The notes under the pieces: model-generated
Seen by the model: only the letters and a program-made list of their open reading frames with translations
What the model was told of the DNA's origin: nothing
The model's database searches: none
Position numbers and translations under genes: made by a program
Source: Spirulina sp.
Lineage (GTDB): Bacteria > Cyanobacteriota > Cyanobacteriia > Phormidesmidales > Phormidesmidaceae
Reading direction: 5' to 3'
DNA: 64,000 bases
NCBI GenBank assembly: GCA_044070495.1
Contig: JBIPSI010000016.1
Location: forward strand, 74,450-138,449
In this document: piece after piece, positions 3,679 to 38,869 of the stretch
Layout: each line of letters starts with the position of its first letter
How positions within the stretch are numbered: the first letter of the stretch is position 1

Positions 3679-3680
3679 TC

Positions 3681-15697: not shown

Positions 15698-16909
15698 GTG
15701 AACCCGGCTATTTTGGCAATTCGGCTGCGCACGACAGTAATCGAGCTTTTTTCAACCTTCATTCGGTTTGCGGACGATCACTTTGAGGGTTGGGCTAGCG
15801 ATCGGCGGCTGAAAAAGGCCATGGAAGACCGCCTGGGCCAGGCCGACGCGGCTGCCCAATCGGAGGGGTTTTGGGCGCTATACTGGCACAAATGCTGGCC
15901 GACCCACAAGCAGGCAGAGACCCATCTACAGGCCTATCTCCAGGAGCCCTGCTATTGGGCCACCCAACGGATCACCCAGCGCTTTGGCAGCGATCAGTGG
16001 ACCCTGGCCGATGGCTTTCAAACGGCGATCGCCCACACGCCCAGCATTCTCAAGCGCTACCGCCCCGACTATGGCAGCGATTTGAGGGCCTACGCCCTAA
16101 CCGCGTTTGGCAACGTAGTGCGCGACCAGATGCGGCAGCAGCAGACGGCTAATATTTGTAGCGATTGGGGCCTGTTGCGACGGCTGAGCCGGGTGCAGGT
16201 GCAGCGATCGCTGGAGGCCGCTGGAATTACCCAGACCGAGGCGGCCATTCTACTCTGGCAGTGCTTTAAAGCGGTTTGTCGGCCCGATCCCCAACGCTCG
16301 GTGCGGGCGCTACCGTCGTCACCCCCCGACCAGCTGGCCCAAATGGCGGCGCGCTACAACCGTCTGCGGGTTCAGCTCAGCCCCATCCCTCCCCGGTTGG
16401 AGGACGAGGATCTGGTGGGCAAGCTTCAGCAAATTGTGCAAGCGGCCCGTGCCCACCTGGTGCCAAAGGTGACGTCGCTGAACGATCCTCAGTTTGACCA
16501 CGGGGCGCACGAGCAGATCGAGAGCTTGATCGGTGATGATGTGCCGATGGCTCGGCTCTTGGCGGAGGAAGCCTATGCGGAACAGCAGCGGCGGGTACGG
16601 CAGATGGAGGAGGTGCTGAAGAATGCGATCGCGGCGCTCCCCCCCGCCGATCAGACCTTGCTGCGGCTTTACTACCAGGAGCAGTTAACCCAAACGGCGA
16701 TCGCCCAGCAGCTCCACATTCAGCAGTATCAGGTGTCGCGGCGGCTGAACCGGGTGCGCCAGCAGTTCCTGGCCGAGGTGGCTCAATGGAGCCAGGAAAG
16801 CCTGCATATTGCCCTGGATTCTGCCGTACTAGGCAGTATGAGCGACGCGATTCACGAGTGGCTACAGCGGCGTTACGCAGCAGAGGATCTAGATGAGTTT
16901 GGTGTTTGA
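15698..16909 (+). CDS. Atypical sigma-70 family sigma factor (cyanobacterial DUF1822-linked type)
   Basis: HLQAYLQEPCYW, SDWGLLRR; region-4 HTH LLRLYYQEQLTQTAIAQQLHIQQYQVSRRL; start uncertain (GTG). Confidence 0.88.
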   Translation: MNPAILAIRLRTTVIELFSTFIRFADDHFEGWASDRRLKKAMEDRLGQADAAAQSEGFWALYWHKCWPTHKQAETHLQAYLQEPCYWATQRITQRFGSDQWTLADGFQTAIAHTPSILKRYRPDYGSDLRAYALTAFGNVVRDQMRQQQTANICSDWGLLRRLSRVQVQRSLEAAGITQTEAAILLWQCFKAVCRPDPQRSVRALPSSPPDQLAQMAARYNRLRVQLSPIPPRLEDEDLVGKLQQIVQAARAHLVPKVTSLNDPQFDHGAHEQIESLIGDDVPMARLLAEEAYAEQQRRVRQMEEVLKNAIAALPPADQTLLRLYYQEQLTQTAIAQQLHIQQYQVSRRLNRVRQQFLAEVAQWSQESLHIALDSAVLGSMSDAIHEWLQRRYAAEDLDEFGV

Positions 16910-18017
16910 CAATCCGGTGCAGCCCGTTCTGGCGATGCCGCCCGATATGGCCCTGTGGCAGCAGGGCGAGGCGATTGCAGACCCGGCGGCCCGCTGGCGC
17001 GTCTACCTGCATCATCTGGGATTCGCGGCCCTGCAAGCCTGGGTACAGGAGGAATGGGATCAACCGCTGCGGCTCTGGCCCGTCAACGCAGCGGAGCTCT
17101 GGCCGTGGGTGGAGGGGCTGGCCCTGGGGCTGGGTGATCGCCGCCTGGTGGTCATCCTCAGCGAGGCGATTGATGCCAGTGCTCTGACGGTGCCCCAGGA
17201 GTGGGTCGATATTCCCGGTTGGGCGGCGGACTACTACCTGGCGGCCCAGGTGGATGTGGACGAGCAGCGGCTGGTGCTGTGGGGCTATGGCACCCACGCC
17301 CAGGTGAAGACTCAGGGGCACTACGAACCGAGCGATTGCACCTACAGCCTGAGCGACGACGACCTAATTCAAGATTTTTCGGTCTTTTGGGTAGCCCAAC
17401 AGCTCGAACAGCCCCAAACCTTTTCCCTGCCTGAGTTGCCTCCCCTCTCAGAGGCCCAGGCCGAGCGCCTGATCGATCGGCTGGTCTATGCGGTGGAACC
17501 GAGACTAGAAATTCCCTTTGAGCAGTGGGGGGCGCTGCTCAGCGATGAGGGCTGGCGGCAACGGCTCTGGCGACAGCGGCGGGGGATGGTGGACCTGAGC
17601 GGCTGGCTGAGGGATTTGGTAGAACCGGGCTGGCGATCTCTGACTTCGCTGTTGCCCCGCACTCCGGCTTTGGGGTTTCGCTCCAGCGGTACTCAAAGTG
17701 CGACGGTCAGTCGGGGCAAGGCCATCTGGCTCAGTCCTCCCGACTGTTTCCTAGTGCTGGGCCTGCGGGTGACACCCACCGAGGATGATCGCCGCCGTAT
17801 TAGCGTGCAGCTCTTTCCCACCGATGTGGACCTGCTGCCTGTGGGCATGACCCTGACTCTGGAACTGCCGGAAACCGGAGAGCCCCTGCAAACGGTGCAG
17901 GCGGGGGGGCAGGACAACTATATACAAATTCCCAGTTTTCGCTGTCCGCCGGGGCAGCGGTTTCGGGTGAGCATTCAGCTGGCAGATGCTATCGTGCAGG
18001 AGGACTTCGTCAGCTAA
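16893..18017 (+). CDS. DUF1822 family protein
   Basis: LTVPQEWVDIPGWAADYYLAAQV, LWGYGTH, LSGWL..LVEPGW, DNYIQ; overlaps the sigma gene. Confidence 0.9.
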   Translation: MSLVFDNPVQPVLAMPPDMALWQQGEAIADPAARWRVYLHHLGFAALQAWVQEEWDQPLRLWPVNAAELWPWVEGLALGLGDRRLVVILSEAIDASALTVPQEWVDIPGWAADYYLAAQVDVDEQRLVLWGYGTHAQVKTQGHYEPSDCTYSLSDDDLIQDFSVFWVAQQLEQPQTFSLPELPPLSEAQAERLIDRLVYAVEPRLEIPFEQWGALLSDEGWRQRLWRQRRGMVDLSGWLRDLVEPGWRSLTSLLPRTPALGFRSSGTQSATVSRGKAIWLSPPDCFLVLGLRVTPTEDDRRRISVQLFPTDVDLLPVGMTLTLELPETGEPLQTVQAGGQDNYIQIPSFRCPPGQRFRVSIQLADAIVQEDFVS

Positions 18018-18021
18018 TGCG

Positions 18022-20388
18022 ATGGAACAGCGCCTGTTGCTCAATCTGGGCCAGGGCGATTGGCACACCGGCTTTGCCAGCGTCACGGCTCAGCTTTGGG
18101 AAAATGAGCAGCCGCCCATGCAGTTTGTCGGCAGTTTGCCGCCGATGCCCCAGCTAGCGGCCCAGTACCAGCGCTGGCAGCAGCTTTACGAGGCTATCTA
18201 CGGCAGCCAGAGCCGCTGGCGACGGTCGGCATCGCCCTTTGAGTTTGAAGCGGGGGCGCTCACCCATGTGTCGCACCAGGAGTTTGCCACCCTCTGCACC
18301 ACCCTGCACACCGATCTAAACCAGTGGCTGATGGCGGCCACCTTTGCCCCCATCGAGCGCCGCCTGCGCACGCACCTTTCGGCCCATGCCAACCTTCAGG
18401 TCATGCTCACCGCCCACGCCAAAGCGGTGCTGCGGTTCCCCTGGCGTCTGTGGCACTTGTTTGACGACTATCCCAATGCCGAACTCTCGTTGAGTCTGCC
18501 TGACTACGGACGCGCCCTGAAGCAGAGTCAGGGCAATTCCACAGGAACGGTCAGAATTTTGGCGGTGCTGGGCACAGACACCGGTATTGATATCGAAACC
18601 GATCGGCGGATTTTGAGCCAGTTACCCGACGCTGAGGTAACGCTGCTGGCTCAGCCCAACCTGAGGGAATTGCAGCATCAACTCTGGGAGTCCAGCTGGG
18701 ATATTTTGTTTTTTGCGGGACACAGCAGCAGCCAGGGAAAGGGGCATCTCCAGGTCAACCCCACTGAATCACTAACCATTGAGCAGCTCAAATACGCCCT
18801 GCAACGCACCATCACTAATGGCTTACAGCTAGCGATTTTGAACTCCTGCGACGGGCTGGGGCTGGCCTGGGATCTGGCGGATCTGCACCTGCCCCAAACC
18901 ATCGTGATGCGGGAGCCGGTACCCGATGCAATCGCCCACCAGTTTCTCAAGGGGTTTTTGGCCCGGTTTGCCAGCGGTCAGCCCCTCTACAGCGCCGTGC
19001 GCGACGCCCGCGAACGGCTCCACGGCCTAAGCGAGCTGGGGATCTGCGCCGCCTGGCTGCCCGTGATTGTGCAAAACCCGGCGGAGGTGCCCCCCACCTG
19101 GCCACAGTTGGCGGGGCAACCCCAGGCGCAACCCACGCCCCCGGCGATGACGCGGTTTCGGCCAAATCCGGCCCAGCGGCGGGTGGGCCTGGGCTGTCTG
19201 GCGATGGCCGCCACGGTTTTGGCCCTGCGCTGGTTCGGCTTCCTGCAACCGGCGGAGCTGTGGGCCTACGATGCCCTGCTGCGATCGCGCCCCCCAGAAA
19301 CGCCGGACTCTCGCCTGCTGCTGGTGACGGTGGACGAGAGCGATATCCAGGCCCAAGCGGGGTTAGAACGGCGGGGTTCGGTAGCCGATGAGACCCTGCT
19401 CCAGACGCTGACCCTGCTGATGGAGGGGGAACCCCGCCTGATTGGCCTCGATCTGTACCGCGACTTTTCGGCCAGCGATCCGGCCCTGGTTGAAGCCCTG
19501 GGGCAGCCCCATCTGGTGGGGCTGTGCAAAAGCCGGGATGCGATCGCAGGCTCGGTTGGCATCAGCCCGCCGCCAGAACTGCCCGCCACCCAGGTCGGCT
19601 TCAGTGACTTTATTGAAGAGGCCGATGGCCGGGTGCGGCGGCAACTGCTGACCCTGACCCCCGACCCGGCTTCGCCCTGCACCTCGCCCTACGGCTTTGG
19701 GGCGCTGATCGCGATTCGCTACCTGCAAGCCACCGGGCTGCAACCCCGGTTTACCGCCCAGGGCGATTTGCAGATCGGGGAGGTGGTCTTGCCCCGGTTG
19801 ACCAACCGCACTGGCGGACTGCAACGGATGGACAGCGGCGGCAATCAGATCCTGCTCAACTACCGCGCCCTGCCTACCCCCGACCAGATCGCAGCGACGG
19901 TTTCCCTCCAGCAGCTTTTGAATGGGCAGGTGAATTTGGAACGGCTGCGTGATCGCATTGTCTTAATCGGCGTCACGGCCCCCAGTGGCGGCGATTACTG
20001 GTCTACCCCCTACGGCAGCCAGGGGCAGGCCCGAACGGCAGGCGTGTTTATGCAGGCCCAGATGATCAGCCAGATCGTCAGCGCCGTGGAGGACGGGCGG
20101 CCCCTGATCTGGGTCTGGCCCCAGTGGGCCGAGGCGCTGTGTATTGCGGTGGGGGCGATTGCCGGTAGTCTGCTGGCCTGGCGCTGGCGATCAGCCCGGC
20201 TAGCTCTAGCCTGTGCGCTAACCACGAGTGCGCTGACTGTAGTCGCCTGGGCCACTCTATTCACAGGCGGATGGCTGCCGCTGTTGCCCACCCTGGTAGC
20301 CCTGAACAGTAGCGCGTTATTAACCGCTACCCTAACCCGCCCATCAGACCGATATCTCCCTCTGAAATCAGCCGATGGGGGGCCGTAG
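18022..20388 (+). CDS. CHAT (caspase-like) protease - TM - CHASE2 - 3TM sensor
   Basis: Catalytic dyad motifs FFAGHS and ILNSCDG; CHASE2 motifs IGLDLYRD, GFSDF..DGRVRRQLL, RIVLIG; terminal TM helices. Confidence 0.92.
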   Translation: MEQRLLLNLGQGDWHTGFASVTAQLWENEQPPMQFVGSLPPMPQLAAQYQRWQQLYEAIYGSQSRWRRSASPFEFEAGALTHVSHQEFATLCTTLHTDLNQWLMAATFAPIERRLRTHLSAHANLQVMLTAHAKAVLRFPWRLWHLFDDYPNAELSLSLPDYGRALKQSQGNSTGTVRILAVLGTDTGIDIETDRRILSQLPDAEVTLLAQPNLRELQHQLWESSWDILFFAGHSSSQGKGHLQVNPTESLTIEQLKYALQRTITNGLQLAILNSCDGLGLAWDLADLHLPQTIVMREPVPDAIAHQFLKGFLARFASGQPLYSAVRDARERLHGLSELGICAAWLPVIVQNPAEVPPTWPQLAGQPQAQPTPPAMTRFRPNPAQRRVGLGCLAMAATVLALRWFGFLQPAELWAYDALLRSRPPETPDSRLLLVTVDESDIQAQAGLERRGSVADETLLQTLTLLMEGEPRLIGLDLYRDFSASDPALVEALGQPHLVGLCKSRDAIAGSVGISPPPELPATQVGFSDFIEEADGRVRRQLLTLTPDPASPCTSPYGFGALIAIRYLQATGLQPRFTAQGDLQIGEVVLPRLTNRTGGLQRMDSGGNQILLNYRALPTPDQIAATVSLQQLLNGQVNLERLRDRIVLIGVTAPSGGDYWSTPYGSQGQARTAGVFMQAQMISQIVSAVEDGRPLIWVWPQWAEALCIAVGAIAGSLLAWRWRSARLALACALTTSALTVVAWATLFTGGWLPLLPTLVALNSSALLTATLTRPSDRYLPLKSADGGP

Positions 20389-20476: not shown

Positions 20477-21214
20477 ATGACCATGAGACGTGCTGTGATG
20501 CGATCGTCCCTATCCGCCGCCATCTCCCTGGGGGTAGCTGCTGCCCTGGGATGGCCCCTGGTGCCTGTGGCCCAGGCCGTGCCTACCCCACCCGACCAGG
20601 GCGCACCCAGCGGACGGCAGCGAGGTGGAGCTTCTCGCGGTGACTGTATGGCCTATCAAGGCTTGACCGCGCTGGTGCCCGTAGTGGATGGCAGCGTCTG
20701 GAGTCAGACCCATAGCCCCACCCCCGACTTCTTCTTTTACATTCCGCAATCCCTCACCGCAGACGTTCCCCTAGAGATGGTGGTGCAGGATAGCGACGAT
20801 AACTACGTCTTCCGCAAGCAGTTCTCCGTCGATGCCGCCGCTGGCATTCTCACGGTTCCGGTTAGCCCTGCCGAGACTGAACTGACCCCCGGCGAAAGCT
20901 ACTCCTGGACCTTTTCAATCTACTGCGATGCAGCTCGTCCGTCGGCCTCGGTTGCTGTGTTTGGCACGGTTACTCGAGTGGCGGCTGGGACAATGCCTGA
21001 AGCAGGTCACCCCCTTACCCCGGCGCAACAGCTTGACCTGGCCAAGCAGTATGCCGCTGCCGGGATCTGGCACGAAGCATTGGGGCTGACCCTGGCGCTG
21101 CATCAGGCCGACCCAGACAATGCCGAATACCTCGAAGCGTTGGATGCGCTGCTTCAACAGGCTGGACTGGCGGACTTATCGCCTGCTGTGTCGGTGAGTG
21201 AGGTGCCTGAGTGA
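20477..21214 (+). CDS. DUF928 secreted protein
   Basis: Signal peptide, GGASRGDC..LTALVP, PDFFFYIP, YAAAGIWHEAL. Confidence 0.92.
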   Translation: MTMRRAVMRSSLSAAISLGVAAALGWPLVPVAQAVPTPPDQGAPSGRQRGGASRGDCMAYQGLTALVPVVDGSVWSQTHSPTPDFFFYIPQSLTADVPLEMVVQDSDDNYVFRKQFSVDAAAGILTVPVSPAETELTPGESYSWTFSIYCDAARPSASVAVFGTVTRVAAGTMPEAGHPLTPAQQLDLAKQYAAAGIWHEALGLTLALHQADPDNAEYLEALDALLQQAGLADLSPAVSVSEVPE

Positions 21215-21262: not shown

Positions 21263-24229
21263 ATGGGGAGTTATGAAACCGGTGTAATTCGTGCTCGTTG
21301 GCCTTTGGCCGCAGGAGCTGCACTTTTGGGCATGGTTGGCAGCCCCTTTCTGGTGCAGGCGCAGGTGATCCCAGATGCCACCCTACCGTCAGAAAACTCT
21401 ATCGTCACCACCGATGGCACGACCTCTCAAATCACGGGTGGGGCCATTCGGGGCGGCAACCTGTTCCACAGTTTTGAGCAGTTTTCGGTGCCCTTGGGCG
21501 ATACCGTTGTCTTTGCCAACGGGGACAGCTTTGCCAACATCATCAACCGCGTCACCGGGGGGACGCTTTCGGATCTCCAGGGGACGATCCAGGCGGGCGG
21601 TAACGCCAATGTATTCCTGATCAACCCCGCAGGTATTGTGTTTGGCCCCAATGCCCGGTTGGAGATAGGCGGCTCTTTCTTCGCCAGCACGGGGGAAGGG
21701 CTGCGGTTTGAGACTGGGTTTGTGTACGATGTCGCTGGCGCTGAGGCCCCGCCGCTGCTGACCATCAGTGCGCCCATCGGTCTCCGCTTGGGCAATGTTT
21801 CAGGGGGCAATGCCCCAGGGGATGTAGTGGTGGCTGGGGCAGACCTCTCCATGGCTGAGGGCCAAACCCTGGCCTTGATTGGAGGGAATATCTCCCTGAC
21901 GGGAGCGCAGCTCACTACCCCTGGAGGCCGCATTGAAGTTGGCAGCGTACAGGCAGGCCAGGAGCTAGGACTCGCCCCTGACGGGCTAGGGTTTGATGTG
22001 GGCTTCGACGGCGTGAATAACTTTGGCGATATTCAACTTTCTAATCGGTCGGTCTTGAATGCCAGCGGCGCAGGCGGGGGGGCGATCGCACTTCACGGCA
22101 ATACAGTCACCCTATCCGGTCAGTCAGCCATTATTTCCGATACCCTGGGCGATCAGGATGGTCGCGGTGTGCAAATTACTGCCGACAGTCTTCAACTCTT
22201 GGATAGCTCCTACATCGGGGCAGCGAGCCTAGGGCGCGGAGCCTCTAGCAGCATCGATATCACGGCAAACGATATCGTAATGGTCGGCACTGGCATCGCC
22301 AACTACAAACTTGTTGAGTTCAGTACCTTTTTAGGAGCCAGGCAGATTAGCGATCGCCAAATTGGTGGCATTTCTACAACCACCGTTGCGTCGGGCCGAA
22401 CCGGAAACATCTCCTTAAATGCTCAAAACATATTGATGGATGAAGGGGTGTTGCTGTCTACCGAGTCATTTGGCACGGGCGACAGCGGTGATATTAATAT
22501 TACTGCCACCGAATCGCTCCGCCTAAGAGGGTCAGGTGTTGTGTCGGGTAGTCAAGTGTCTGGAATACCCCTAGTCACTCCCGGTGGTATTCCCACTGGA
22601 TTATCCACTAGTAACATTCCAGCAGGTGAGGGTGGACGTATTGCGATCAATACAGCCCAGCTAGCTGTAGAAGATGGTAGTGCAATTGCAGCTATGACCC
22701 AAAGCGATCAACGTTCGGGAGATGTTGTTATCAGCGTCTCAGATTCAATCACGTTAAGGGGCTTTTTTGCCCCTTTCTTCCTTCCAACATCAGTCACGAC
22801 TATTACGATTGGTGGTAACGGGACAGCCGGAAATTTGCAAATTGAAACAGGTCGTTTAATTGTTCAAGATAGCTCAGCCATCTATGCCGACTCGGGTAGT
22901 CGAGGCATAGATGGCAACGTTACTTTTGGTGGAATAGCTGGTGATATATCTATCGTTGCCACTAATTCAGTTGATATTGTCGGCAATCGAACTGTTGTGG
23001 CTGGATTAGCAGCTAGTGGTGTGCGATCAAGAACCTTTTCTGATTCACCCGCAGGCACCATCCAGATCACCACACCAATCCTGAATGTTCGTGACGGCGG
23101 TCTCATTAGCAGTGCTACGTTGAATGACGGAGCAGGCGGTGCAATCAACATTGATGCCCAGACAGTTGTTGTGTCAGGGGATAGGAATCGCCCCACCGAA
23201 ACCTTCAGCAGTATTGGTGCCAGTTCAGGTATTGAGCGGCAGACAGCGTTTACCACCGGAGCGATTGAGTCTTTGCCCGCTGCTGGATCTGGGGGAAGCA
23301 TCACCATCAATGCGACGAATCTAGCCTTACAAGGTGCCGCTGAAATATCTGTGGGGAGTTTTGGGTCAGGCACTGCTGGCAACCTTGACATTACAGCTAA
23401 TACCGTTCGTCTAAATGATGGCGGCAGTCTAACTGCAACAACGACCTCCGGTGGAGGGGGCAATATTGCTCTGACATCCCAGACCCTGGCTCTTGACGGC
23501 AGCCACATCACCGCCAGTTCGGATAGCGGCGATGGCGGCAACCTGGCTTTTCATCTTCAGGATTTTCTACTGCTGAGAAACGGTAGTTTAATCTCTACTG
23601 AAGCGGGGACAGATGGGGCTGGGGGCAACGGCGGCGACATTGCCCTCAACCTGCCCACTGGCTTTCTCGTTGCCGTACCCACGGAAAATAGCGACATTCG
23701 CGCCAATGCCTTTGAGGGGGATGGCGGCAGCGTCACCATCACCGCCCGCAGTCTGCTGGGGATCGAATTTCGTCCTGACGTGATCGATACGCCCCTCAGC
23801 GACATTACCGCCAGCTCCCGTTTTGGCAACAGCGGCACGGTCACCATTGACGAACTGGCCCCAGATATCGCCCAGGACGATGTGGCCCTTCCGACTGAAA
23901 CAGCGCCAACAGAACTGGCCCAGGGCTGTCGGGGGCAGGGGGCACAGGCGGGTAGCTTCGTAGTTACCGGGCGTGGCGGTCTGCCCACCAACCCGGCTGA
24001 TTCGCTCAGCGCCGATTCCGTTTGGCAAGATTTGGCTCCCATTCCGCTGACTGAGGACGGTGCGGAGCCATCTTCTGAGGCCCCCGATCCTGAACCCATG
24101 GTTGCGGCTACCCCCATAGTCGAAGCCCAAAGCTGGACTAGGGCTGAGGATGGCACAGTAATGCTCCTGGCGGATGCCACCGCTGCGCCAGATCACTTTG
24201 TGTCAAGAGTGAATTGTGCGGGTAATTGA
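21263..24229 (+). CDS. Filamentous haemagglutinin-family (TpsA) beta-helical exoprotein
   Basis: TPS domain NLFHSFEQFSV, INRVTGG, FLINPAGIVFG; G.GG.I.I repeats; C-terminal ENSDIRANAF and FVVTGRGGLP. Confidence 0.93.
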   Translation: MGSYETGVIRARWPLAAGAALLGMVGSPFLVQAQVIPDATLPSENSIVTTDGTTSQITGGAIRGGNLFHSFEQFSVPLGDTVVFANGDSFANIINRVTGGTLSDLQGTIQAGGNANVFLINPAGIVFGPNARLEIGGSFFASTGEGLRFETGFVYDVAGAEAPPLLTISAPIGLRLGNVSGGNAPGDVVVAGADLSMAEGQTLALIGGNISLTGAQLTTPGGRIEVGSVQAGQELGLAPDGLGFDVGFDGVNNFGDIQLSNRSVLNASGAGGGAIALHGNTVTLSGQSAIISDTLGDQDGRGVQITADSLQLLDSSYIGAASLGRGASSSIDITANDIVMVGTGIANYKLVEFSTFLGARQISDRQIGGISTTTVASGRTGNISLNAQNILMDEGVLLSTESFGTGDSGDINITATESLRLRGSGVVSGSQVSGIPLVTPGGIPTGLSTSNIPAGEGGRIAINTAQLAVEDGSAIAAMTQSDQRSGDVVISVSDSITLRGFFAPFFLPTSVTTITIGGNGTAGNLQIETGRLIVQDSSAIYADSGSRGIDGNVTFGGIAGDISIVATNSVDIVGNRTVVAGLAASGVRSRTFSDSPAGTIQITTPILNVRDGGLISSATLNDGAGGAINIDAQTVVVSGDRNRPTETFSSIGASSGIERQTAFTTGAIESLPAAGSGGSITINATNLALQGAAEISVGSFGSGTAGNLDITANTVRLNDGGSLTATTTSGGGGNIALTSQTLALDGSHITASSDSGDGGNLAFHLQDFLLLRNGSLISTEAGTDGAGGNGGDIALNLPTGFLVAVPTENSDIRANAFEGDGGSVTITARSLLGIEFRPDVIDTPLSDITASSRFGNSGTVTIDELAPDIAQDDVALPTETAPTELAQGCRGQGAQAGSFVVTGRGGLPTNPADSLSADSVWQDLAPIPLTEDGAEPSSEAPDPEPMVAATPIVEAQSWTRAEDGTVMLLADATAAPDHFVSRVNCAGN

Positions 24230-24589: not shown

Positions 24590-24645
24590 AAATTTTCTCA
24601 AAGTCAGGGCTGAGCCCTGCATACTTCGTTCCGATCCGCCGTATA
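24590..24645 (+). promoter_or_regulatory. Promoter-like motif copy 1: TCTCA-N10-TGAGC then TGCATAC-N14-CCGTAT
   Basis: TGCATAC 24618-24624, CCGTAT 24639-24644; upstream of the PAS gene. Confidence 0.7.
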
Positions 24646-24699
24646 CGCCTTTAATCAGCGGTATCCGTTGGGAGAAAAGCGACGGCCTGAGGGGGCTAC

Positions 24700-24829
24700 T
24701 TGGTTGACTGACAAAAGATCCTGCGCCGGACGCGGAAACCGTGCCCCTACAGGATTTGGATAATGTAGGGGTCAGGTCTCCTGACCCTTTGGCGGATTTG
24801 GGTTCTCGCAAGTTTTGTCAGTCAACCAG
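24700..24829. mobile_element. 130-bp MITE with terminal IRs, 9-bp target duplication and internal GTAG REP pair
   Basis: TGGTTGACTGACAAAA / TTTTGTCAGTCAACCA; GGGGGCTAC at 24691-24699 and 24830-24838; homologue at 46379-46508. Confidence 0.85.
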
Positions 24830-24951
24830 GGGGGCTACTGGCCCTGGTGACAGTCAAAAGTCAGCCCAGAGGCGATCGCACCTCTACTTTCAAGACAATC
24901 AACAGGAGTTAGAAACGGTGAACCTGAACGGATGTTGGAGTTGACGTCACT

Positions 24952-26511: not shown

Positions 26512-26514
26512 CCC

Positions 26515-27273: not shown

Positions 27274-27298
27274 GCCCTTTCGTAATACTGGCTCAGCC

Positions 27299-29573: not shown

Positions 29574-29600
29574 TGCATACTTAGCCCAAACCAGCCGTAT
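29574..29600 (+). promoter_or_regulatory. Promoter-like motif copy 2
   Basis: TGCATAC-ttagcccaaaccag-CCGTAT. Confidence 0.65.
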
Positions 29601-29838: not shown

Positions 29839-29887
29839 TTTCAAATTCAGGCCTGAGAATTGCATACTCACCCTATGGCAGCCGTAT
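29839..29887 (+). promoter_or_regulatory. Promoter-like motif copy 3
   Basis: TTTCA-N10-TGAGA then TGCATAC-tcaccctatggcag-CCGTAT; about 75 nt before the patatin ATG. Confidence 0.7.
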
Positions 29888-31023: not shown

Positions 31024-31074
31024 CGCCTGCATAGATGCTTCAGTTTGTCCATTTGTATACTTTTTATCACTGCC

Positions 31075-32112
31075 ATGACTCTTCTTTCAAACAGCCTCAA
31101 GATTTCTGCAACAGTAACGACAGCTGCTCTCCTAGCTACCTGCTTTTCCCCTAGTGCGATCGCCGACCAGCCGACCATTGTCACCGTTCAGAAACTCACC
31201 GCTGGCGATCGCGCCTGCTATGTCGATGTCATTGATGCGGGGGGAGTCTACTCTACAGAATATGCAGCTTTCGAGGTTTGTGAGCAAGATTTAGTCGGTA
31301 GAGACGTGAATCTTATCTATGAGCCGGGCAGCATTATAGCTGTCTCGTGCCAGGGCGATCCGGCCTGTAGCGAAACTGAAACGGTGATGCTGATTACCCA
31401 GGCTGAAATCATCGAGGCTCCGACAGTGGGCGTTATCCATGAGGTTATTGTAGGGGACAGAGCCTGTGATATTGGATTTACAGATGAAACGGGAGAACTC
31501 TGGTACCGCCAAGCAACCTTTGCAGTCTGTAATCAAGATTTAATCGGTGACACTGCGCAATTTACCTATGAAGTAGCGGAGATTTCAGCCTATGCTTGCG
31601 AGGGCGATCCAACCTGTGAGCAAACCGATGTCGTGACTCTGATTACCAATGTCGAAATTGTTTCTGACTTGACCCCCAATTTAATCAATGATAGACCTCA
31701 AGGTCGCGTGCAGGATCTCCCCGATGGCAACTATCGCTACTGGAGCGGCACCACCGATCAAAGTATTGTTTCTGACGATATCCTGATCAATAACGGAGGC
31801 ACCTTATTTCTGTTCCGAAAGCAGGGTGATAATGTTACAGGCATTTTCTCTTATGTGAATGCGGAAGCCATCTGTATTAGCGGCCAAGTCAATGGCAACA
31901 CCGTCAGCGGTCGGGCGGTGCAAACGGGGGAGGGGATTTCTGTCCTGAGTAGCGGAGAAACCTTTGCAAACTTTGGGCCGAGTGAGACCTTGTCTCTACG
32001 TCGAGGTCGCCAGGTCAGCGATGAACAGGTTCGCTATGGCAGCGCCCTTCTAAATCTCGCAGAACTCAATCGCATTAATGCCGGTACAGCCCTTCCCCCA
32101 GGAGGATGCTAG
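31075..32112 (+). CDS. Secreted protein with two tandem Cys-containing repeats
   Basis: Signal peptide; GDRAC...FxVCxQDLxG...CxGDPxC..T..V.LIT occurs twice. Confidence 0.75.
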   Translation: MTLLSNSLKISATVTTAALLATCFSPSAIADQPTIVTVQKLTAGDRACYVDVIDAGGVYSTEYAAFEVCEQDLVGRDVNLIYEPGSIIAVSCQGDPACSETETVMLITQAEIIEAPTVGVIHEVIVGDRACDIGFTDETGELWYRQATFAVCNQDLIGDTAQFTYEVAEISAYACEGDPTCEQTDVVTLITNVEIVSDLTPNLINDRPQGRVQDLPDGNYRYWSGTTDQSIVSDDILINNGGTLFLFRKQGDNVTGIFSYVNAEAICISGQVNGNTVSGRAVQTGEGISVLSSGETFANFGPSETLSLRRGRQVSDEQVRYGSALLNLAELNRINAGTALPPGGC

Positions 32113-32280: not shown

Positions 32281-32329
32281 TCTCAAACTTAGGGCTGAGA
32301 GCTGCATACTCCGTAAACATCAACCGTAT
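32281..32329 (+). promoter_or_regulatory. Promoter-like motif copy 4
   Basis: TCTCA-aacttagggc-TGAGA then TGCATAC-tccgtaaacatcaa-CCGTAT; about 30 nt before ATG 32359. Confidence 0.7.
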
Positions 32330-32358: not shown

Positions 32359-33264
32359 ATGTTATTGATACCTGAACTTGAAAGAGTAAACCATTGGGCT
32401 TCGGTTCACAGTCCACTACATTCCCATAGATCTGCAAAGCGCGAACGTCAATCGGTAACACATTTTGCACCATTATTCCTTACAGAAAGTAACGTTGGCG
32501 AGCATGGCTTTCAACCGCCTGTAGTCTCTGGAAGCGCTTTAGTCGGAGATGGGAAGGAAAATGGCTTAAGGAAAGATTTAGAAGTAGGCAATTGTCTACC
32601 TGGTTTAGGAGAACCTCTTACTGCAGAGGGGTATAATGCTCTGTTAGAACAATATCGTGGAAGTCCGCTCACTGGTTGTACAACCGTAATGGATATGGCA
32701 AGGATAAAAGCCGGTTATAACCCCCTTAGTCCAGACTTTGACGGTAATAAGTCAGCTTTCGATGATTACGTTTCAAGAATAATGCAGTCTCCTTTTTTCT
32801 TTCTCGATTATTCAAGCCGAACGGATTATCACAAGGAAGAGCAAAATTGGGATCAAGCGATTAGTGGAATTGCTGATCTCTATGAGGGAATTGAATCTGG
32901 CAGTAAAGATTCAATAGTCAAAAGCTTAGCAGCCATGGCCCAGGCAGCAGCCTCAAGAAAGAACACAAAAAACACGCAGAACTTGTTTGCGCAAAGCACA
33001 ATAAGCATCAATGATAAAATCGAGGTTTTTATTTACTCCAGCCTAGTTGAGATGGAGGAAAGCCAGTCTAAGGGTAGCGATTCTAAGCAGACTGATATGA
33101 CCATCATAAAAGCTAAGTTAACCTTTTACAGCACTATGTGGCCATCATACGCGCAGATGGTGCTAGGTCATCATATAAAGCTAACGAGTGATTGGTTAGA
33201 CGAGAATACATTAAAGTCAGGTTCTGAAACAACAAATCTGAATTTAGGACAAAATAAAGCATAG
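32359..33264 (+). CDS. Hypothetical protein, Evf/Cyt-like candidate
   Basis: AT-rich 301-aa ORF; SPFF..I.DLYEGI...I..SL..MA.AA.S...QNLFAQ...FIYSS...DWL pattern recalls the Evf family. Confidence 0.5.
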   Translation: MLLIPELERVNHWASVHSPLHSHRSAKRERQSVTHFAPLFLTESNVGEHGFQPPVVSGSALVGDGKENGLRKDLEVGNCLPGLGEPLTAEGYNALLEQYRGSPLTGCTTVMDMARIKAGYNPLSPDFDGNKSAFDDYVSRIMQSPFFFLDYSSRTDYHKEEQNWDQAISGIADLYEGIESGSKDSIVKSLAAMAQAAASRKNTKNTQNLFAQSTISINDKIEVFIYSSLVEMEESQSKGSDSKQTDMTIIKAKLTFYSTMWPSYAQMVLGHHIKLTSDWLDENTLKSGSETTNLNLGQNKA

Positions 33265-33375
33265 GGTGAGACTGGTTTCGCAAAAACACAAGATTGGGAG
33301 ATTAATGAAGTTTCGTCATCTCCCAATCTTATTGATTACACATCGAAATCCGCGAAAAATATACCGAATAGGCTT

Positions 33376-34248
33376 TTGACTAGAATGAATTTAGAAAGCA
33401 CTAATAAGTGGATTGAACACGTAAACAGTTTTCCGGTTGAATTTAATCTTGATCCTACCCGTATCCATCCGTTCACCCTTGAGCTTCCATCTAGCATATC
33501 AACTAACAATAAAACGTCTGGTGTGGGCGCAATATTATTAGGAAAAGGAATAACAGAAGTTCATAAGCAAGCGGAAGAGCTGGCAGCAACAAAGCCAGAG
33601 GAAAGACCGTGGGAAAATTCAGATTGGTTAGATAAATTTAGTGCTTCTCCTGCAAACGGATTGGCCAGCATTTTAGGTTTTATACAGCATAGAGTGAACT
33701 GGAATCCAATTAGAAATTCCGAAGCGACACGGAATAATTTCTCGGCCTTTATTAACCTACTTTCACTTAGCCCATATTTGGCACATAATATTGTTGACAA
33801 AACCAAAGTTAACTTCAAGAATAAAGACTATCCGAAGATAATTGATGAAATTCTATCTCTGTACACTGGATTATCTCCTGAGCAAATGCAGGATGTGAAG
33901 ACTAACTTGCGGCAAATGGTGTATGCGGCTTTATCAGAAGCGGGTAGTCAGCAAACCAATACATTATTTGTTCAAAACATTATGGAAGTTAAGACGCCAG
34001 ACATAATAGCTTTCTACGTGTACTCTTCGAAGGTTTCATTTATTTACCATGGCGGGAAGCATCATTTCATGGAGACACATGCCATAATTGATCGCATTAA
34101 ACTTATCTTTGATGCATCAAAGGTTTGGAATCGTACCACTGCTGCAATTGTTTCTGGAATCCTATATAACGATGTCAATCAATGGTTAGAAAACAATAAT
34201 GCTCCTGATAAACAGTCGATTCAACCCACAATAGATCTGTGTTTCTAA
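33376..34248 (+). CDS. Divergent paralogue of the upstream Evf-like protein
   Basis: Shares NP, SPY, LY.G, TLFVQN, YVYSS, KL.F and QWLENN in register with 32359-33264; start may be ATG 33385. Confidence 0.5.
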   Translation: MTRMNLESTNKWIEHVNSFPVEFNLDPTRIHPFTLELPSSISTNNKTSGVGAILLGKGITEVHKQAEELAATKPEERPWENSDWLDKFSASPANGLASILGFIQHRVNWNPIRNSEATRNNFSAFINLLSLSPYLAHNIVDKTKVNFKNKDYPKIIDEILSLYTGLSPEQMQDVKTNLRQMVYAALSEAGSQQTNTLFVQNIMEVKTPDIIAFYVYSSKVSFIYHGGKHHFMETHAIIDRIKLIFDASKVWNRTTAAIVSGILYNDVNQWLENNNAPDKQSIQPTIDLCF

Positions 34249-34450: not shown

Positions 34451-37042
34451 ATGGCGTGGCGCATTGATAGCGTGCTTTCCTGGCTGCGGCTATTCAAACT
34501 AAGCCTTTACCTATTTTTAGGCATAGTCCTTGCCTTCACTCCCGTTTGGGGACTTAGTCTAGTCCATGCTGGAGAAGCGAGAATGGCTGAGATCGCCGCT
34601 TCCCCCTCGCCTAACGACCTGCTCGATCAGGGTCGCCAAGCTTATACATCCCAGCGATATATCGAGGCTGTAGCCGCTTGGGAAGAGTCAACAATGTTAT
34701 TCACTGATCGCCCGCTCCAGCAAGCCCTGGCTCTCGGCTATCTCACCCTGGCGCACCAGCAACTCAGCCAGTGGGACGCCGCCGATCGCACCATCACCCA
34801 CAGCTTAAACCTCCTCGCCACCGCCCCCGACTCCCCCCAAAAGCTGGCCGTGAGCGCCCAGGTTCACAACACCCTCGGCAGCCTGCAATTTGCCCTAGGG
34901 CAGACCCAGGCTGCCCTAGAAACCTGGCACACCGCTGCCGAGCTGTACAAGCAAACCGGAGACGAAAGCCGCTACGTCAACGCTCTCCTAAACCAGGTAC
35001 AGGCCCAGCAGTCATTGGGATACTACCAGCCCGCGCGGCGTACCCTGGCGACCCTGGAGCAGCGCCTGCCGCTACAGTCGCTGCCCGTGCAGGTGCTGGG
35101 CTATCAACGGCTAGGGCAGACCTACCGCCTGCTGGGCGACCTGGAAATGGCCCAGGCTCATTTGCAGACTGCTTTGGAACTGGCGCAGCGAGAGCGCTTA
35201 GCCACGGGGGCCATCTTGCTGGGGCTGGCCAATACGGCCCAGGGGCAGGGAGACTGGCAGAGCGCAATCGCTCTCTACCAGCAAGCCGAACAGACCCAGG
35301 AATCCGACATTCGCCTCAAGGCCCGCCTGAACCGACTCAGCCTGTTAGCCCAGCACGATCCTGAGGCGGCTCCACCGCTGGCCGTCTCTCTACCGAGAGA
35401 TCTAGCCGAAATGCCCCCAGGGCGCAGCCAGATCTATGCCCACATCAACGCGGCCCAAAGCCTGCTCCAGCTTAAAACCCCTGCTGAGGTCGAAACCGCT
35501 GCCCGACTGCTGGCCCAGGCCATTCAGCAGAGCATGGCCTTGCAAGATACCCGTGCCGAAGCCTATGCCAGGGGCTATCTGGGCCACGCCTACGAGGTCT
35601 CCCAGCAGTGGCCGGAGGCGCAGCAGTTAACCGAGCAAGCTCTGACCCTGGCCCAAGCCCTCAATGCCGCCGATATCGCCTACCAGTGGCACTGGCAGCT
35701 AGGTCGCCTGCTCAATCAACAGGGGCAACCAAACCTGGCTTTGCCAGCCTACCGGAATGCTTTCACCGCCCTGCAATCCCTCAAACAAGATCTAGTAGCC
35801 GTCAGCGACGACCTCCAGTTCTCCTTTCGCGACAGCGTCGAGCCAGTCTACCGAGAGCTGGTCGATCTGCTGCTGCAACCGGAACCCCAAACACCCTCTT
35901 CCGTCACCCCACCACCCCACTACCCCACCACCCGCCTCACCGAAGCCCGCTTAGTCATCGAAGCCTTGCAGATCGCCGAACTCAACAATTTCTTTAGAAC
36001 CGCCTGCCTGGAGGGTGAGCAGGTCGCCCTTGAGGCGGTGAGTCAGTCCACCACCGCCGTCATTTACCCAATTATTCTGCCGGATCGGCTGGAGATCATC
36101 GCCAGTCTGCCGGGGCAGCCCCTGCGGCAGTACACCAGCCCAGTGCCCCAGGCAGCGCTGGAGCAGACCCTGACGGACTGGCGGCAAAACCTGGAACGGC
36201 GGTTCACCGCTCCCGAGGGCAGGGCCCTGGGACAGCAGCTCTACCGCTGGCTGATTGACCCGATGCAGGAGGTACTGGCCGAAACCCGGCCCCAAACCCT
36301 GGTCTTCGTGCTGGATGGTGCCCTGCGAAACACCCCCATGGCGGCCCTGTACGACGGGGAGCGGTATTTGGTGGAAGACTATGCGATCGCCCTCTCCCCC
36401 GGTCTCCAACTTCTCGGCCCCCGGCCTTTACAGGACAGTCGGATGGCGGCACTCTTGGCAGGGCTGACGGAGCCTAGACATGGCTTTAGCGCCCTCACCA
36501 ACGTGAACAACGAGATTCAAACCATTCAGGCGCTGCTCGACAATCGGGTCTTGCTCGATGAACAGTTCACCACAACAGCCCTAGCCCAGCAGATCGCAAA
36601 GACTGAGCTGCCCATTGTGCACCTGGCCACCCATGCCCAGTACAGCTCTAATCTGCAAGACACCTTCATTCTGGCCTGGGATCGCCCCATGCCGGTGGAT
36701 GAGTTGAGCCTCCTGCTCAGCGCCGGAGACCAGAGCCGGGTGGAACCCATTGAGCTGCTGGTGCTCAGCGCCTGCGAGACGGCCACCGGAGACAACCGCG
36801 CCGCCCTGGGTTTGGCGGGTCTGTCGCTCCAGGCGGGTGCCCGCAGTACCCTGGCCTCCCTGTGGAATTTAGACGACGCTTCTGGAGCGTATTTTATTCG
36901 CCAGTTCTATCAAGCCCTGGCCCAGCCCGGTGCAACTAAAGCCAAAGCGCTGCGCCAGGCCCAAAGGTCGCTGCTACAGCATCCTGACTACCGCCATCCG
37001 ATCTATTGGTCGGCCTATGTGCTGGTGGGAAACTGGCTGTAG
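34451..37042 (+). CDS. Exported TPR-CHAT protease
   Basis: N-terminal hydrophobic segment, TPR repeats, FSFRDSVEPVYR, VHLATH, LVLSACETA, HPIYWSAYVLVGNWL. Confidence 0.93.
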   Translation: MAWRIDSVLSWLRLFKLSLYLFLGIVLAFTPVWGLSLVHAGEARMAEIAASPSPNDLLDQGRQAYTSQRYIEAVAAWEESTMLFTDRPLQQALALGYLTLAHQQLSQWDAADRTITHSLNLLATAPDSPQKLAVSAQVHNTLGSLQFALGQTQAALETWHTAAELYKQTGDESRYVNALLNQVQAQQSLGYYQPARRTLATLEQRLPLQSLPVQVLGYQRLGQTYRLLGDLEMAQAHLQTALELAQRERLATGAILLGLANTAQGQGDWQSAIALYQQAEQTQESDIRLKARLNRLSLLAQHDPEAAPPLAVSLPRDLAEMPPGRSQIYAHINAAQSLLQLKTPAEVETAARLLAQAIQQSMALQDTRAEAYARGYLGHAYEVSQQWPEAQQLTEQALTLAQALNAADIAYQWHWQLGRLLNQQGQPNLALPAYRNAFTALQSLKQDLVAVSDDLQFSFRDSVEPVYRELVDLLLQPEPQTPSSVTPPPHYPTTRLTEARLVIEALQIAELNNFFRTACLEGEQVALEAVSQSTTAVIYPIILPDRLEIIASLPGQPLRQYTSPVPQAALEQTLTDWRQNLERRFTAPEGRALGQQLYRWLIDPMQEVLAETRPQTLVFVLDGALRNTPMAALYDGERYLVEDYAIALSPGLQLLGPRPLQDSRMAALLAGLTEPRHGFSALTNVNNEIQTIQALLDNRVLLDEQFTTTALAQQIAKTELPIVHLATHAQYSSNLQDTFILAWDRPMPVDELSLLLSAGDQSRVEPIELLVLSACETATGDNRAALGLAGLSLQAGARSTLASLWNLDDASGAYFIRQFYQALAQPGATKAKALRQAQRSLLQHPDYRHPIYWSAYVLVGNWL

Positions 37043-37087
37043 CCCTATAATGCAGTCGCCACAACCGTAGTTTTTCTAGCCCCCACC

Positions 37088-38869
37088 TTGACGCGATCGC
37101 AAACCCGATGCCCTTGGGTTGGCTTGGCGCTTGCCTGTCCAGCTATGCTTCAAACCCTGGCAGCCGCTTCTCCTACCAGGGCGCAAATGGTGGAGCGATC
37201 ACTTGATCCCGTCCCTCTGATGCTCTCCCAAGGGGGGCCAGCGCTACCCCGTTTGCCAAACCAGCCGATTCCAGAACCGCCCTTGCCCGACCAGCTGCTG
37301 CCCACCCTGCCCCCGCCGGAGGAACTTCTGCCATCGGCTGAGCCCGCGCCACCAGAAGCACCCCTGGACGGAACCGACGCTACTTTTTTTGTTAGCACTA
37401 TCGAGATTACGGGCAGCACCGTCTTTTCCCAGGCCGATTTGGCTGACCTGGTGGCCCCCTACCTCAACCGGCAGGTCAGTTTTGGGGAACTGCTGGAACT
37501 GCGCAATGCCATTACCGAACGCTACGTTACGGCGGGCTACATTACCTCAGGGGCCATCCTGCCGCCCCAAACCCTAGTGGACGATAGGGTCACGATTCAG
37601 GTGATTGAAGGGGAACTCGAAGACATTGTGGTAGTCGGCTTGAATCGCCTTAGTCCGGCCTATGTCCGCAGCCGCCTGGGGTTGGCTAGTGCCCCTCCCC
37701 TCAATGTGGATCGATTGCTGGCGGGGTTGCAGCGGCTCCAGCTCAATCCCCTGATTGAAACGGTGGCGGCAGACTTGCAGGCGGGCAGTAGAGCGAACCT
37801 CAGCGTGCTGGTGGTCGATTTGGCGGAGGCGGATTCCTTTGCCGTGGATCTGAGTTTGGACAACTACGGGGCGGACAGCACCGGGGTCGGACAGCGCCGA
37901 CTGCTGTTGAGCGAGGGCAATCTTTCGAGCCTGGGCGATCGTATCACCCTGGAGTACGAAAACACCGACGGCAGCAACGGCGTTGATCTCAGCTACACCC
38001 TGCCCGTGAGTCCAAACGGCGATATCCTGCGCTTCAGAGTGGGCTACGCAAACAGCCGGGTCATTGACCCCAATTTTCAGGTGCTCGACATTTCCTCCAG
38101 CAGTGTTTACTACGACCTGGGCTATCGCCATACCCTGATCGAAACCCCCACCGAAGAACTCACCCTGGGCCTCACCCTATCCCATCAGCACAGCCAAACC
38201 CGCCTGGGCCTAGACAACATTGGCCCCTTTCCCCTCTCCCCAGGGGCCGACCGTGATGGCATCACCCGCATCACGGCCCTGCGCTTCTCCCAACAGTGGA
38301 CCCAGCGCAGCCAGACCCATGTGCTGGCCTTTCGTTCCCAATTCAGCCTGGGGCTAGATTGGCTCAACGCCACCGTCAACCCCACTGGCCCCGACAGCCG
38401 CTTTCTGGCCTGGCGCGGTCAGGGCCAGTGGCTCCAACGCTTTGGCCCCGATACCCTGCTGCTGCTGCGGGGCGACGCCCAACTGGCGAGCAATGACCTG
38501 CTATCGCCCGAGAAATTTGGCCTGGGCGGTGCCCAGAGCGTGCGCGGCTATGGGCGAGATGTGCTGCTGCGCGACAGTGGGGTGCTGCTCTCGGCAGAGT
38601 TGCGATCGCCCATCGCCCGCATTCCAGAACTGGATAGCACTCTCCAGATCATTCCGTTTCTGGATGCTGGGGTGGCCTGGAGTGTAAACGATGACTTGTC
38701 CTCTGGCCCTAACACCTTGATTGGCACTGGACTGGGCCTACTTTGGCAGCAGGGCGATCGCCTCTCCATGCGAGTCGATCTGAGTCTTCCCCTTGTACCC
38801 CTGGCTGAAGATAGAAACGTTTTCCAAAACAGCCGTATCTATGGTTCAGTTCGGTACGCACTCTTCTGA
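37088..38869 (+). CDS. ShlB/FhaC/HecB (TpsB) outer-membrane transporter
   Basis: POTRA Y..AGYITSGA, VIEG; GGAQSVRGY barrel motif; C-terminal Phe. Confidence 0.93.
   Translation: MTRSQTRCPWVGLALACPAMLQTLAAASPTRAQMVERSLDPVPLMLSQGGPALPRLPNQPIPEPPLPDQLLPTLPPPEELLPSAEPAPPEAPLDGTDATFFVSTIEITGSTVFSQADLADLVAPYLNRQVSFGELLELRNAITERYVTAGYITSGAILPPQTLVDDRVTIQVIEGELEDIVVVGLNRLSPAYVRSRLGLASAPPLNVDRLLAGLQRLQLNPLIETVAADLQAGSRANLSVLVVDLAEADSFAVDLSLDNYGADSTGVGQRRLLLSEGNLSSLGDRITLEYENTDGSNGVDLSYTLPVSPNGDILRFRVGYANSRVIDPNFQVLDISSSSVYYDLGYRHTLIETPTEELTLGLTLSHQHSQTRLGLDNIGPFPLSPGADRDGITRITALRFSQQWTQRSQTHVLAFRSQFSLGLDWLNATVNPTGPDSRFLAWRGQGQWLQRFGPDTLLLLRGDAQLASNDLLSPEKFGLGGAQSVRGYGRDVLLRDSGVLLSAELRSPIARIPELDSTLQIIPFLDAGVAWSVNDDLSSGPNTLIGTGLGLLWQQGDRLSMRVDLSLPLVPLAEDRNVFQNSRIYGSVRYALF

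Follow-up and report, generated by a model that had tools for sequence, protein, structure and literature searches.

Which genes does an extracytoplasmic function (ECF)-like sigma factor control when the gene cluster that encodes it is split by a block of genes of other families? The question is raised by a 64,000-nucleotide stretch of DNA from the filamentous cyanobacterium Spirulina sp. (GenBank assembly GCA_044070495.1, contig JBIPSI010000016.1; hereafter the window), in which genes for the sigma factor, a DUF1822 protein, a CHAT protease with a CHASE2 sensor, a DUF928 protein and the exoprotein TpsA are separated by a cargo slot from genes for a TPR-CHAT protease and the transporter TpsB. 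Reading of the intergenic DNA revealed one two-box motif, TGCATACT-N13-CCGTAT, at 24618, 29574, 29861 and 32303, upstream of cargo genes. Taken with a predicted sigma-DUF1822 complex and a candidate cleavage site in DUF1822, it leads us to regard as reasonably probable that the locus encodes a transcription switch operated by regulated proteolysis, with a variable, locally encoded regulon.

The features of the locus are listed below (positions in the window; plus strand unless noted).

15122..15193, +: tRNA-Thr(cgt) (ARAGORN), marking the left edge of the island
15698..16909, +: divergent ECF-like sigma factor (Pfam sigma-70 regions 2 and 4; TIGR02937)
16803..16829, +: internal promoter-like copy, TGCATATT-N13-CCGTAC, in the 3′ end of the sigma gene, with the start of DUF1822 64 nt further on
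16893..18017, +: DUF1822 protein, predicted anti-sigma factor (Pfam; structure models)
18022..20388, +: receptor protease with an EACC2-like domain, CHAT, a transmembrane segment, CHASE2 and further transmembrane segments (Pfam, hydropathy)
20477..21214, +: DUF928 protein, probably periplasmic (Pfam, hydropathy)
21263..24229, +: TpsA exoprotein with a TPS domain (Pfam; NCBIfam)
24618..24644, +: candidate promoter copy 1, exact, with the upstream TCAAAnTnAGGnCTGA element; precedes PAS-MinD-SulP
24699..24830, no strand: miniature inverted-repeat element between candidate promoter 1 and the PAS gene (hairpin z −3.4)
24952..29551, +: cargo unit 1, encoding a membrane PAS protein, a MinD/ParA-like ATPase and a SulP-STAS-cNMP transporter (Pfam)
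29574..29600, +: candidate promoter copy 2, exact (intergenic motif reading)
29861..29887, +: third exact copy of the candidate promoter; the probable patatin start (29963) follows after 75 nt
29963..32112, +: second cargo unit, encoding a patatin-like phospholipase and a protein of secreted type that belongs to no known family (Pfam, NF041079, PADLOC)
32303..32329, +: fourth exact copy of the candidate promoter; the next start (32359) follows after 30 nt
32359..34248, +: third cargo unit, a pair of low-GC paralogues with a predicted Evf/Cyt-like pore-forming-toxin fold (ESM Atlas)
34451..37042, +: TPR-CHAT protease with an N-terminal hydrophobic leader (Pfam)
37088..38869, +: TpsB outer-membrane transporter, POTRA_2 and ShlB (Pfam)

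An earlier sequence-only reading of the window had described seven co-oriented core genes and an overlap between the sigma and DUF1822 genes. The Pfam search of the window found all seven in one orientation at the places listed, and the two reading frames share 17 bases. The CHAT-CHASE2 open reading frame (ORF) spans 17986-20388, its likely start being the ATG at 18022, five bases past the DUF1822 stop. That reading had also placed about 10 kb of unrelated cargo inside the core: the gap from TpsA to TPR-CHAT measures 10.2 kb with seven ORFs, and its genes are indeed unrelated in sequence, yet the common promoter-like motif ties them to the core. The GC content at third codon positions is 0.35-0.64 in the slot ORFs against 0.65-0.76 in six core genes, with TpsA at 0.54.

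A candidate private promoter motif

Besides the four exact copies, the window holds one copy with two mismatches, against a shuffle mean of 0.17 at up to two mismatches. The 5.3-Mb genome contains exactly these four exact copies, all in the slot, on the plus strand and intergenic, where half-site counts predict 0.004; it showed no further copy within one mismatch at the same spacing, and no exact motif at spacers of 9-12 or 14-18. The upstream element TCAAAnTnAGGnCTGA has three occurrences in the genome, which precede three of the four copies. The free spacer hid the motif from the automatic repeat finder, and general scans returned numbers near chance, both for sigma-70 promoters (17 versus 11.4 ± 3.5) and for terminators (14 versus 11.0 ± 3.2). 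The two boxes of ECF promoters are spaced by 16 nt. The layout TGCATA-N16-CGTA fits ECF promoters, for which tgaAAC and CGTA boxes are given in B. subtilis (passages of PMC5758882).

In a survey of 173 genomes of the family, 16 exact copies were found in 11 genomes, while a reversed control gave one; 9/11 of the motif-bearing genomes carry this sigma factor at 51% identity or more. The exact motif is present in 9/65 genomes with the sigma factor versus 2/108 without it, and in 7/10 where the sigma factor is at least 59% identical, these counts being descriptive since kin are not independent. Within the genus, allowing one mismatch, all six genomes with a close sigma factor match (in G016 inside the sigma gene only), compared with 1/47 of the others. 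A motif matrix trained on 13 sites placed a co-oriented site right after TpsA in 9/10 five-gene arms, five of which belonged to the training set and four of which were held out (G016, G042, G273 and G264); over 434 kb it gave 24 hits and its reversed version 0. The slot of G177 has three copies, and the genes behind the motif are non-homologous between loci. The earlier suggestion that this sigma factor transcribes the cargo has thus acquired a candidate promoter, a private ECF-type motif that tracks the sigma factor, and we infer that the sigma factor may recognize TGCATA-N16-CGTA and use it as a promoter.

A trans regulon was considered and rejected, as the three one-mismatch copies outside slots (in G042 and G004) fall within ORFs or do not exceed chance. 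A metagenome scan with the extended pattern returned five stretches, with no core gene in the fetched flank.

Two further, very divergent sigma/DUF1822-like/EACC2-CHAT sets are encoded in the same genome, G000 (G000:C35:8480-11055 and G000:C12:102787-108073). After masking of ORFs, the C35 island yielded a motif of its own, TATAT-N16-CTTAT, with 6/7 genome copies on that contig, and no copy of the TGCATACT-N13-CCGTAT motif. This separate motif fits private sigma-promoter pairs. The first word pairs obtained for C35 were dropped, being TPR coding repeats.

The internal copy in the sigma gene

To assess the copy inside the sigma gene, third-base conservation was compared among 31 sigma genes (32-83% identity). 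CAT encodes His370 in 29/29 of them and the Leu369 codon ends in TG in 30/31; of 167 columns, these two have the highest third-base values (median 0.58). Val377 is GTA in 10/10 close genes, compared with 21/184 elsewhere in those genes. We propose that this internal copy is a feedback promoter for the inhibitor gene. In the HetZ system of Anabaena PCC 7120, sigma-HetZ likewise activates patU and is blocked by PatU3 (passages of PMC13342950).

Contents and possible growth of the cargo slot

The PAS-MinD-SulP unit recurs in the slots of relatives, where a PAS or kinase-PAS/MinD unit is a recurrent element. Its PAS and MinD-like proteins (24952-27273) are 95-98% identical among strains, as against 72-91% for the core genes, which points either to recent transfer or to strong constraint. 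A short helix is common to the C-terminal ends of the PAS sensors, which at other places in the genome are also paired with MinD-like ATPases. The inverted-repeat element ahead of them (24699-24830) is flanked by a direct repeat and has 63 near-full-length copies among 92 genome hits. In the second unit, the patatin scores 205 bits with NF041079, just above the cut-off of 200, and matches PADLOC phospholipase effector models. The paralogues of the third unit are 23% identical (mutual E 3e-12) and have no Pfam or PDB sequence match; their ESM Atlas features score 0.96-0.97, with a TM-score of 0.61 to an Evf cluster for the second protein and a value under the naming bar for the other. We treat the Evf/Cyt fold as a lead from structure prediction.

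Other slots hold collar/laminin-G and DUF6603 genes (G002), Ntox11 (G057), and glutaminase, hydrolase, cyclase, dynamin-like, TIR and chitinase-astacin genes together with HTH-NB-ARC regulators. The largest cargo seen is a contractile injection system in G016 (L063:6310 to L064:6893) with sheath, baseplate J and spike-like genes; an RGS-domain gene lies beside it. The cargo may serve a defensive purpose.

How these genes arrive bears on what the motif is. Similarity between strains breaks beside motif copies, most often just past SulP, and copies 3 and 4 are 73% identical over the 60 bases upstream and 17% identical downstream. Because copies 3 and 4 are alike upstream and not downstream, and the breaks fall at motif copies, cargo arrival by duplication of a short promoter unit, with capture of new genes just behind it, is suggested. 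The same observations would also suit a mark of cassette recombination or insertion that is no promoter of this sigma factor at all. A further possibility of this kind is the site of another regulator, such as HTH-NB-ARC, whose gene lies just before TPR-CHAT (or after TpsA) in the slots of five relatives, G004, G016, G057, G230 and G264 (L075:827-2239, L064:8680-10098, L072:11413-12879, L147:19014 and L157:10951), with a weak motif copy ahead in two. However, two boxes separated by a free spacer of fixed length, in a single orientation and 30-75 nt before starts in three cases, argue for a promoter. The sigma gene itself, into which no cassette inserts, also holds a conserved copy, and Pfam detected no recombinase in the window slot. 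As for the regulator, the window slot has no HTH-NB-ARC gene (the best relative, elsewhere in the genome, is 35% identical) and yet contains four perfect copies, whereas in G057, which has an NB-ARC gene and where no such sigma factor was found, no copy within one mismatch occurs. We therefore hold it very unlikely that the motif is anything other than this sigma factor's promoter.

A predicted complex of the sigma factor with DUF1822

The sigma factor scores 90 bits against TIGR02937 (NCBIfam cut-off 42.9). Its structure model comprises sigma2 (about residues 55-150), an insertion of about 110 amino acids and sigma4 (about 295-370), and the fold matches of the model are sigma-70 proteins, with Z 9-10 and an rmsd of about 2 Å over 80-95 residues for sigma2, and Z 8.0 and 1.4 Å over 69 residues for sigma4. 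The insertion (residues about 151-268) has a weak likeness to SANT/SLIDE helical domains (Z 7.3, rmsd 4.1) and might contact the promoter spacer or the upstream element.

Complex prediction for the sigma factor and DUF1822, from alignments of 31 rows each drawn from the fetched loci, gave 0.84 in three runs, against 0.00 for the best of three controls. The mark used is reached by 116/157 solved and 2/215 mismatched pairs, a calibration that is rough here, where our own 31-row alignments were used. The runs agree in at least 90% of contacts, with a partner pLDDT of at least 81. In the model, DUF1822 residues 3-202 contact sigma residues 116-167, 191-226 and 325-386, recognition helix included, so that DUF1822 lies over sigma regions 2 and 4. 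The model supports binding of the sigma factor by DUF1822 and hence the anti-sigma role in which the sequence-only reading had cast it. In passages of PMC13342950, PatU3 is cross-linked on sigma-HetZ at insertions and sigma4, sites that match the modelled contacts of DUF1822 in outline.

DUF1822 itself is modelled as an alpha/beta N-domain (about 3-230), a disordered linker (257-268) and an Ig-like C-domain, helical-repeat inserts being confined to longer family members. The passages of Kaur et al. (PMC8195603) call it a TPR protein; we rejected this assignment, as the model contains no TPR. A Foldseek search of the model had no match at E 0.001 or better, and no solved relative of DUF1822 was found. 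Among the VIA rows, the best resemble Holliday-junction resolvases (Z 7.6, rmsd 3.0, 110 aligned) and, at Z about 7, Ig-like sandwiches, in both cases middling scores that show no function. The N-domain (window 16893-17430) bears a weak likeness to the PD-(D/E)xK nuclease fold (Z 7.6 with Hjc). The closest named records of DUF1822 come from Nodosilinea species, at 71-87% identity.

A conserved arginine and an intact protease

How could such an inhibitor be removed? Arg263 of the linker is kept in 31/31 DUF1822 rows, while neighbouring columns reach at most 20/31; the site reads F-R|S and the segment has a pLDDT under 50. In a wider set of 43 rows, 35 align at Arg263 and most others have an arginine nearby. 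In the PatU family, a comparable linker contains an invariant arginine (30/30), usually followed by serine (R-S), and PatU3 is cut by HetF at R117|S118 (passages of PMC9457339). Since an invariant arginine in a disordered linker follows the HetF-PatU3 pattern, cleavage of DUF1822 after Arg263 is plausible by analogy.

The candidate protease appears intact. The sequence-only reading had noted that both CHAT domains keep their histidine and cysteine, and these are invariant in relatives as well: His246/Cys288 (numbered from the ATG at 17986) in 25/25 aligned EACC2-CHAT proteins, and His728/Cys775 in 12/12 TPR-CHAT proteins. Neither CHAT region matches solved structures by sequence. A conserved region of about 190 amino acids, a candidate EACC2 domain, lies ahead of the first CHAT in the 25-row alignment. 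The hydropathy scan places transmembrane helices of the CHAT-CHASE2 protein at 400-420, 714-732 and 739-759, with CHAT inside and CHASE2 (E 4e-58, flanked by transmembrane segments) outside; relatives show other C-termini. It also finds hydrophobic N-terminal stretches in TPR-CHAT (8-40) and DUF928 (11-32), which suggest that both are exported. This agrees with the topology claimed earlier, one CHAT cytoplasmic under CHASE2 and the other probably exported.

The envelope arm and the conservation of gene order

The N-terminus of DUF928 carries a conserved peptide rich in Arg and Gly, and two cysteines of the protein are invariant; we conjecture that the peptide could be a substrate of the exported CHAT. 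TpsA, besides its TPS domain, ends in a conserved non-repeat tail (window 23900-24229) with a TGRGGLP motif and two cysteines. TpsB has POTRA and the ShlB barrel (Pfam), and from gene linkage we predict that it exports this TpsA.

Conservation was surveyed in 41 fetched loci with DUF1822, as the sequence-only reading had recommended. The sigma gene lies immediately upstream of DUF1822 in 38/41, the other three loci beginning at a contig end, an EACC2-CHAT gene adjoins in 22/41 and DUF928 follows in 15/41; the grouping is therefore not due to chance.

The left arm (from the sigma gene to TpsA) and the right arm (TPR-CHAT and TpsB) might be merely a secretion cassette beside a regulator, with TPR-CHAT maturing TpsA and taking no part in signalling. 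Three further CHASE2/DUF928/TPS/TPR-CHAT sets occur in the genome without a sigma factor (L173, L174 and L175; G000 C18, C1 and C6), their signalling partners being a histidine kinase, an adenylate/guanylate cyclase and a Ser/Thr kinase; two of the sets include TpsA/TpsB, and none has the motif. Because the same genes recur with three other signalling outputs and without the motif, the envelope arm looks like a generic input module. Moreover, no motif stands directly ahead of TPR-CHAT in the window, and in G230 and G284 no TpsB gene was found behind TPR-CHAT. Against a mere secretion cassette, the seven-gene order is kept on one contig in G000 (the source genome), G002, G016 and G042 around changing cargo, with slots of 10, 23, 25 and 12 kb; slots of 6-10 kb are present in G284, G230 and G177, so that the range of changing cargo is 6-25 kb, and in four distant loci of the 41 TPR-CHAT abuts the left arm directly, without cargo. 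We consider a pure secretion role doubtful, and it would in any case be compatible with the inner half of the mechanism that we favor.

Flanking regions

A close relative, G067, shares 89% identity with the window as far as base 15194 and differs from there on; since similarity stops directly past tRNA-Thr, the locus is an island. The stretch between the tRNA and the sigma gene (15200-15697) contains broken reading-frame remnants, and on this side relatives carry a telomere-resolvase-like or Mu-transposase gene. An Rfam scan of 15000-39000 found the tRNA only.

Further left, 13145-14734 encodes a 4Fe-4S plus HTH regulator (Pfam), present in 21/53 genomes of the genus, which we take to resemble PatB/CnfR of nitrogen fixation. 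Type III-B CRISPR cmr genes occupy 23-5937 (Cmr2, Cmr3, RAMP; Pfam). A link between them and the locus was considered and has no support; the cmr genes are about 10 kb away, beyond the tRNA boundary. On the right, an iron-uptake cluster (42046-62687) comprises FeoAB, TonB-dependent receptors with AMIN domains, AraC regulators and ABC transporters (Pfam).

Relation to known systems

Passages of Kaur, Iyer, Burroughs and Aravind (eLife 2021, PMC8195603) catalogue, from computation, EACC2-caspase proteins whose sensors vary and whose genes neighbour those for an ECF sigma factor and DUF1822, in operons running on to a TPR-caspase, and propose an activation that ends in sigma-driven transcription. 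The locus is of this kind, sharing a caspase with intact His/Cys, a C-terminus with CHASE2 between transmembrane segments, and the neighbouring ECF sigma and DUF1822 genes; its core, and nearly the same proposal, have been known since 2021. What sets it apart as a variant is the swappable, promoter-tagged cargo slot. The passages available from that paper name no promoter, regulon, anti-sigma assignment, cut site or cargo slot; the private motif on the cargo, its internal copy, the model of the sigma-DUF1822 complex and the Arg263 linker site are added here. A search of mainly open-access literature found no mention of a promoter or motif and no experimental study of this system.

The experimentally studied HetF-PatU3-sigma-HetZ system of Anabaena PCC 7120 (passages of PMC9457339 and PMC13342950) has in common with the locus a membrane CHAT protease, a co-transcribed sigma factor and inhibitor, a linker with an Arg-Ser/Gly site, followed by a beta domain at the C-terminus, an ECF-like sigma factor of about 400 amino acids with insertions, and the driving of the inhibitor's gene by the sigma factor, which for the locus is a proposal. 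The families are nevertheless separate, and the genome has its own hetZ-patU elsewhere. Assignment of the sigma factor to HetZ was rejected, as NF037963/NF037964 match other loci only and hhalign gives a probability of 11% over the helix-turn-helix alone; so was assignment of the protease to HetF (NF045509, 18 bits versus a cut-off of 1200). For DUF1822 and PatU, hhalign gives 4.6% for the whole proteins and 22% for the C-domains alone (E 2e-4). The candidate promoter differs, TGCATA-N16-CGTA here versus TCCGGA-N16-17-TGnA for sigma-HetZ, as do the sensor (CHASE2 versus the periplasmic TPR of HetF) and the proposed output (local cargo versus cell differentiation).

Passages of bioRxiv 2023.06.23.546230 describe the CRISPR-linked Csx29-Csx30-CASP-sigma, CalpL-CalpT-CalpS and SAVED-CHAT/PCaspase modules, in which proteolytic cutting of a sigma-binding partner also acts as the switch. 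These are triggered by cytoplasmic RNA or cyclic oligoadenylate, and Pfam and PADLOC found no SAVED/CARF or Cas7-11 domain in the locus. Two-partner secretion systems share the TPS exoprotein and the POTRA-ShlB transporter, whereas here the cargo slot separates the two partners, and two proteases and a sensor are linked with them.

A proposed mechanism

In the mechanism that we favor, DUF1822 would hold the sigma factor at rest by masking region 2 together with the region 4 helix that reads the −35 box, as the complex model predicts. A periplasmic cue at CHASE2, probably with DUF928 as co-receptor or ligand, would activate the cytoplasmic CHAT, which would cut DUF1822 after Arg263; by analogy with HetF-PatU3, the Ig-like domain would be lost and the sigma-binding half degraded. 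The freed sigma factor would then read the TGCATA-N16-CGTA sites, four of them ahead of cargo units, and a weaker promoter inside its own gene would provide more inhibitor and receptor, that is, negative feedback. The slot between TpsA and TPR-CHAT would be a site of accretion, where strains gain and swap units of promoter and cargo. Besides a PAS/MinD signalling unit that recurs, this cargo would comprise genes of the conflict type, among them those for phospholipases, Evf/Cyt-like proteins and hydrolases. TpsA/TpsB and the exported TPR-CHAT may be components of the generic CHASE2/DUF928 input module; of all the steps, their part in the cascade has the least support.

Several points weigh against this mechanism. 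We infer both the cleavage and the signal, for a locus known from computation alone. On the promoter side, the whole arm of G242 has no motif, and the exact motif occurs in G204 and G268, which have a deleted sigma remnant or no sigma factor. No downstream copy was found in the fetched flanks of loci with a sigma factor of 43% identity or less, nor in 8/8 sigma-DUF1822 loci without CHAT, so that the exact motif is specific to a subfamily. At one mismatch, the reversed control gave 21 matches in 53 genomes and the motif 21 in seven genomes; as the control scores equally, single imperfect copies mean little. The injection system of G016 lies on the opposite strand, without the motif. On the protease side, 19/41 DUF1822 loci have no CHAT neighbour, some of them truncated by contig ends, two divergent DUF1822-like paralogues of the same genome have no arginine at the linker position, and Arg263 is beyond the modelled interface (DUF1822 3-202), so that the cut alone would not free the sigma factor and a second degradation step would be needed.

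The protease-side points also speak for a version in which sigma factor, anti-sigma factor and promoter act as proposed while CHAT acts otherwise, by self-cleavage or on other substrates, the release of DUF1822 being due to binding or to a different protease. Many sigma-DUF1822 pairs without an adjacent CHAT still keep the arginine, and an "autopeptidase activation" has been proposed for EACC2 caspases (passages of Kaur et al., PMC8195603). Nevertheless, this arginine is the single invariant residue of a disordered, otherwise variable linker and has the HetF-PatU3 precedent, and pairs lacking CHAT may use one encoded elsewhere, as this genome encodes further EACC2-CHAT genes. We therefore consider the version without DUF1822 cleavage by CHAT unlikely.

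A more speculative extension, which we think rather improbable as a whole, would make the locus a bacterial parallel of Toll-type innate immune signalling with a swappable output. Damage, or a grazer or parasite cue, at the TpsA surface protein would activate the exported TPR-CHAT, which would turn the Arg-rich N-terminal peptide of DUF928 into a CHASE2 ligand; the receptor caspase would destroy DUF1822, and the sigma factor would fire promoter-tagged cassettes (pore-forming-toxin-like proteins, phospholipases, chitinase, TIR, dynamin), exchanged by recombination at the promoter repeats in the manner of an integron-like array without an integrase.

Significance

Cyanobacteria encode many CHAT proteases and CHASE2 receptors without a known substrate, signal or output, and HetF-PatU3-HetZ is the one worked-out case that we found. 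The locus offers handles for a second, namely a candidate promoter of defined sequence, a sigma/anti-sigma pair with a model, a cut site that is predicted and a putative regulon close by. A reporter of the candidate promoter would be a direct screen for the signal sensed by CHASE2. The paralogous sigma/promoter pairs, apparently orthogonal within one genome, are candidate parts for cyanobacterial engineering. If the cassette reading is true, this would be a signalling system that collects new defence or attack genes under a private promoter.

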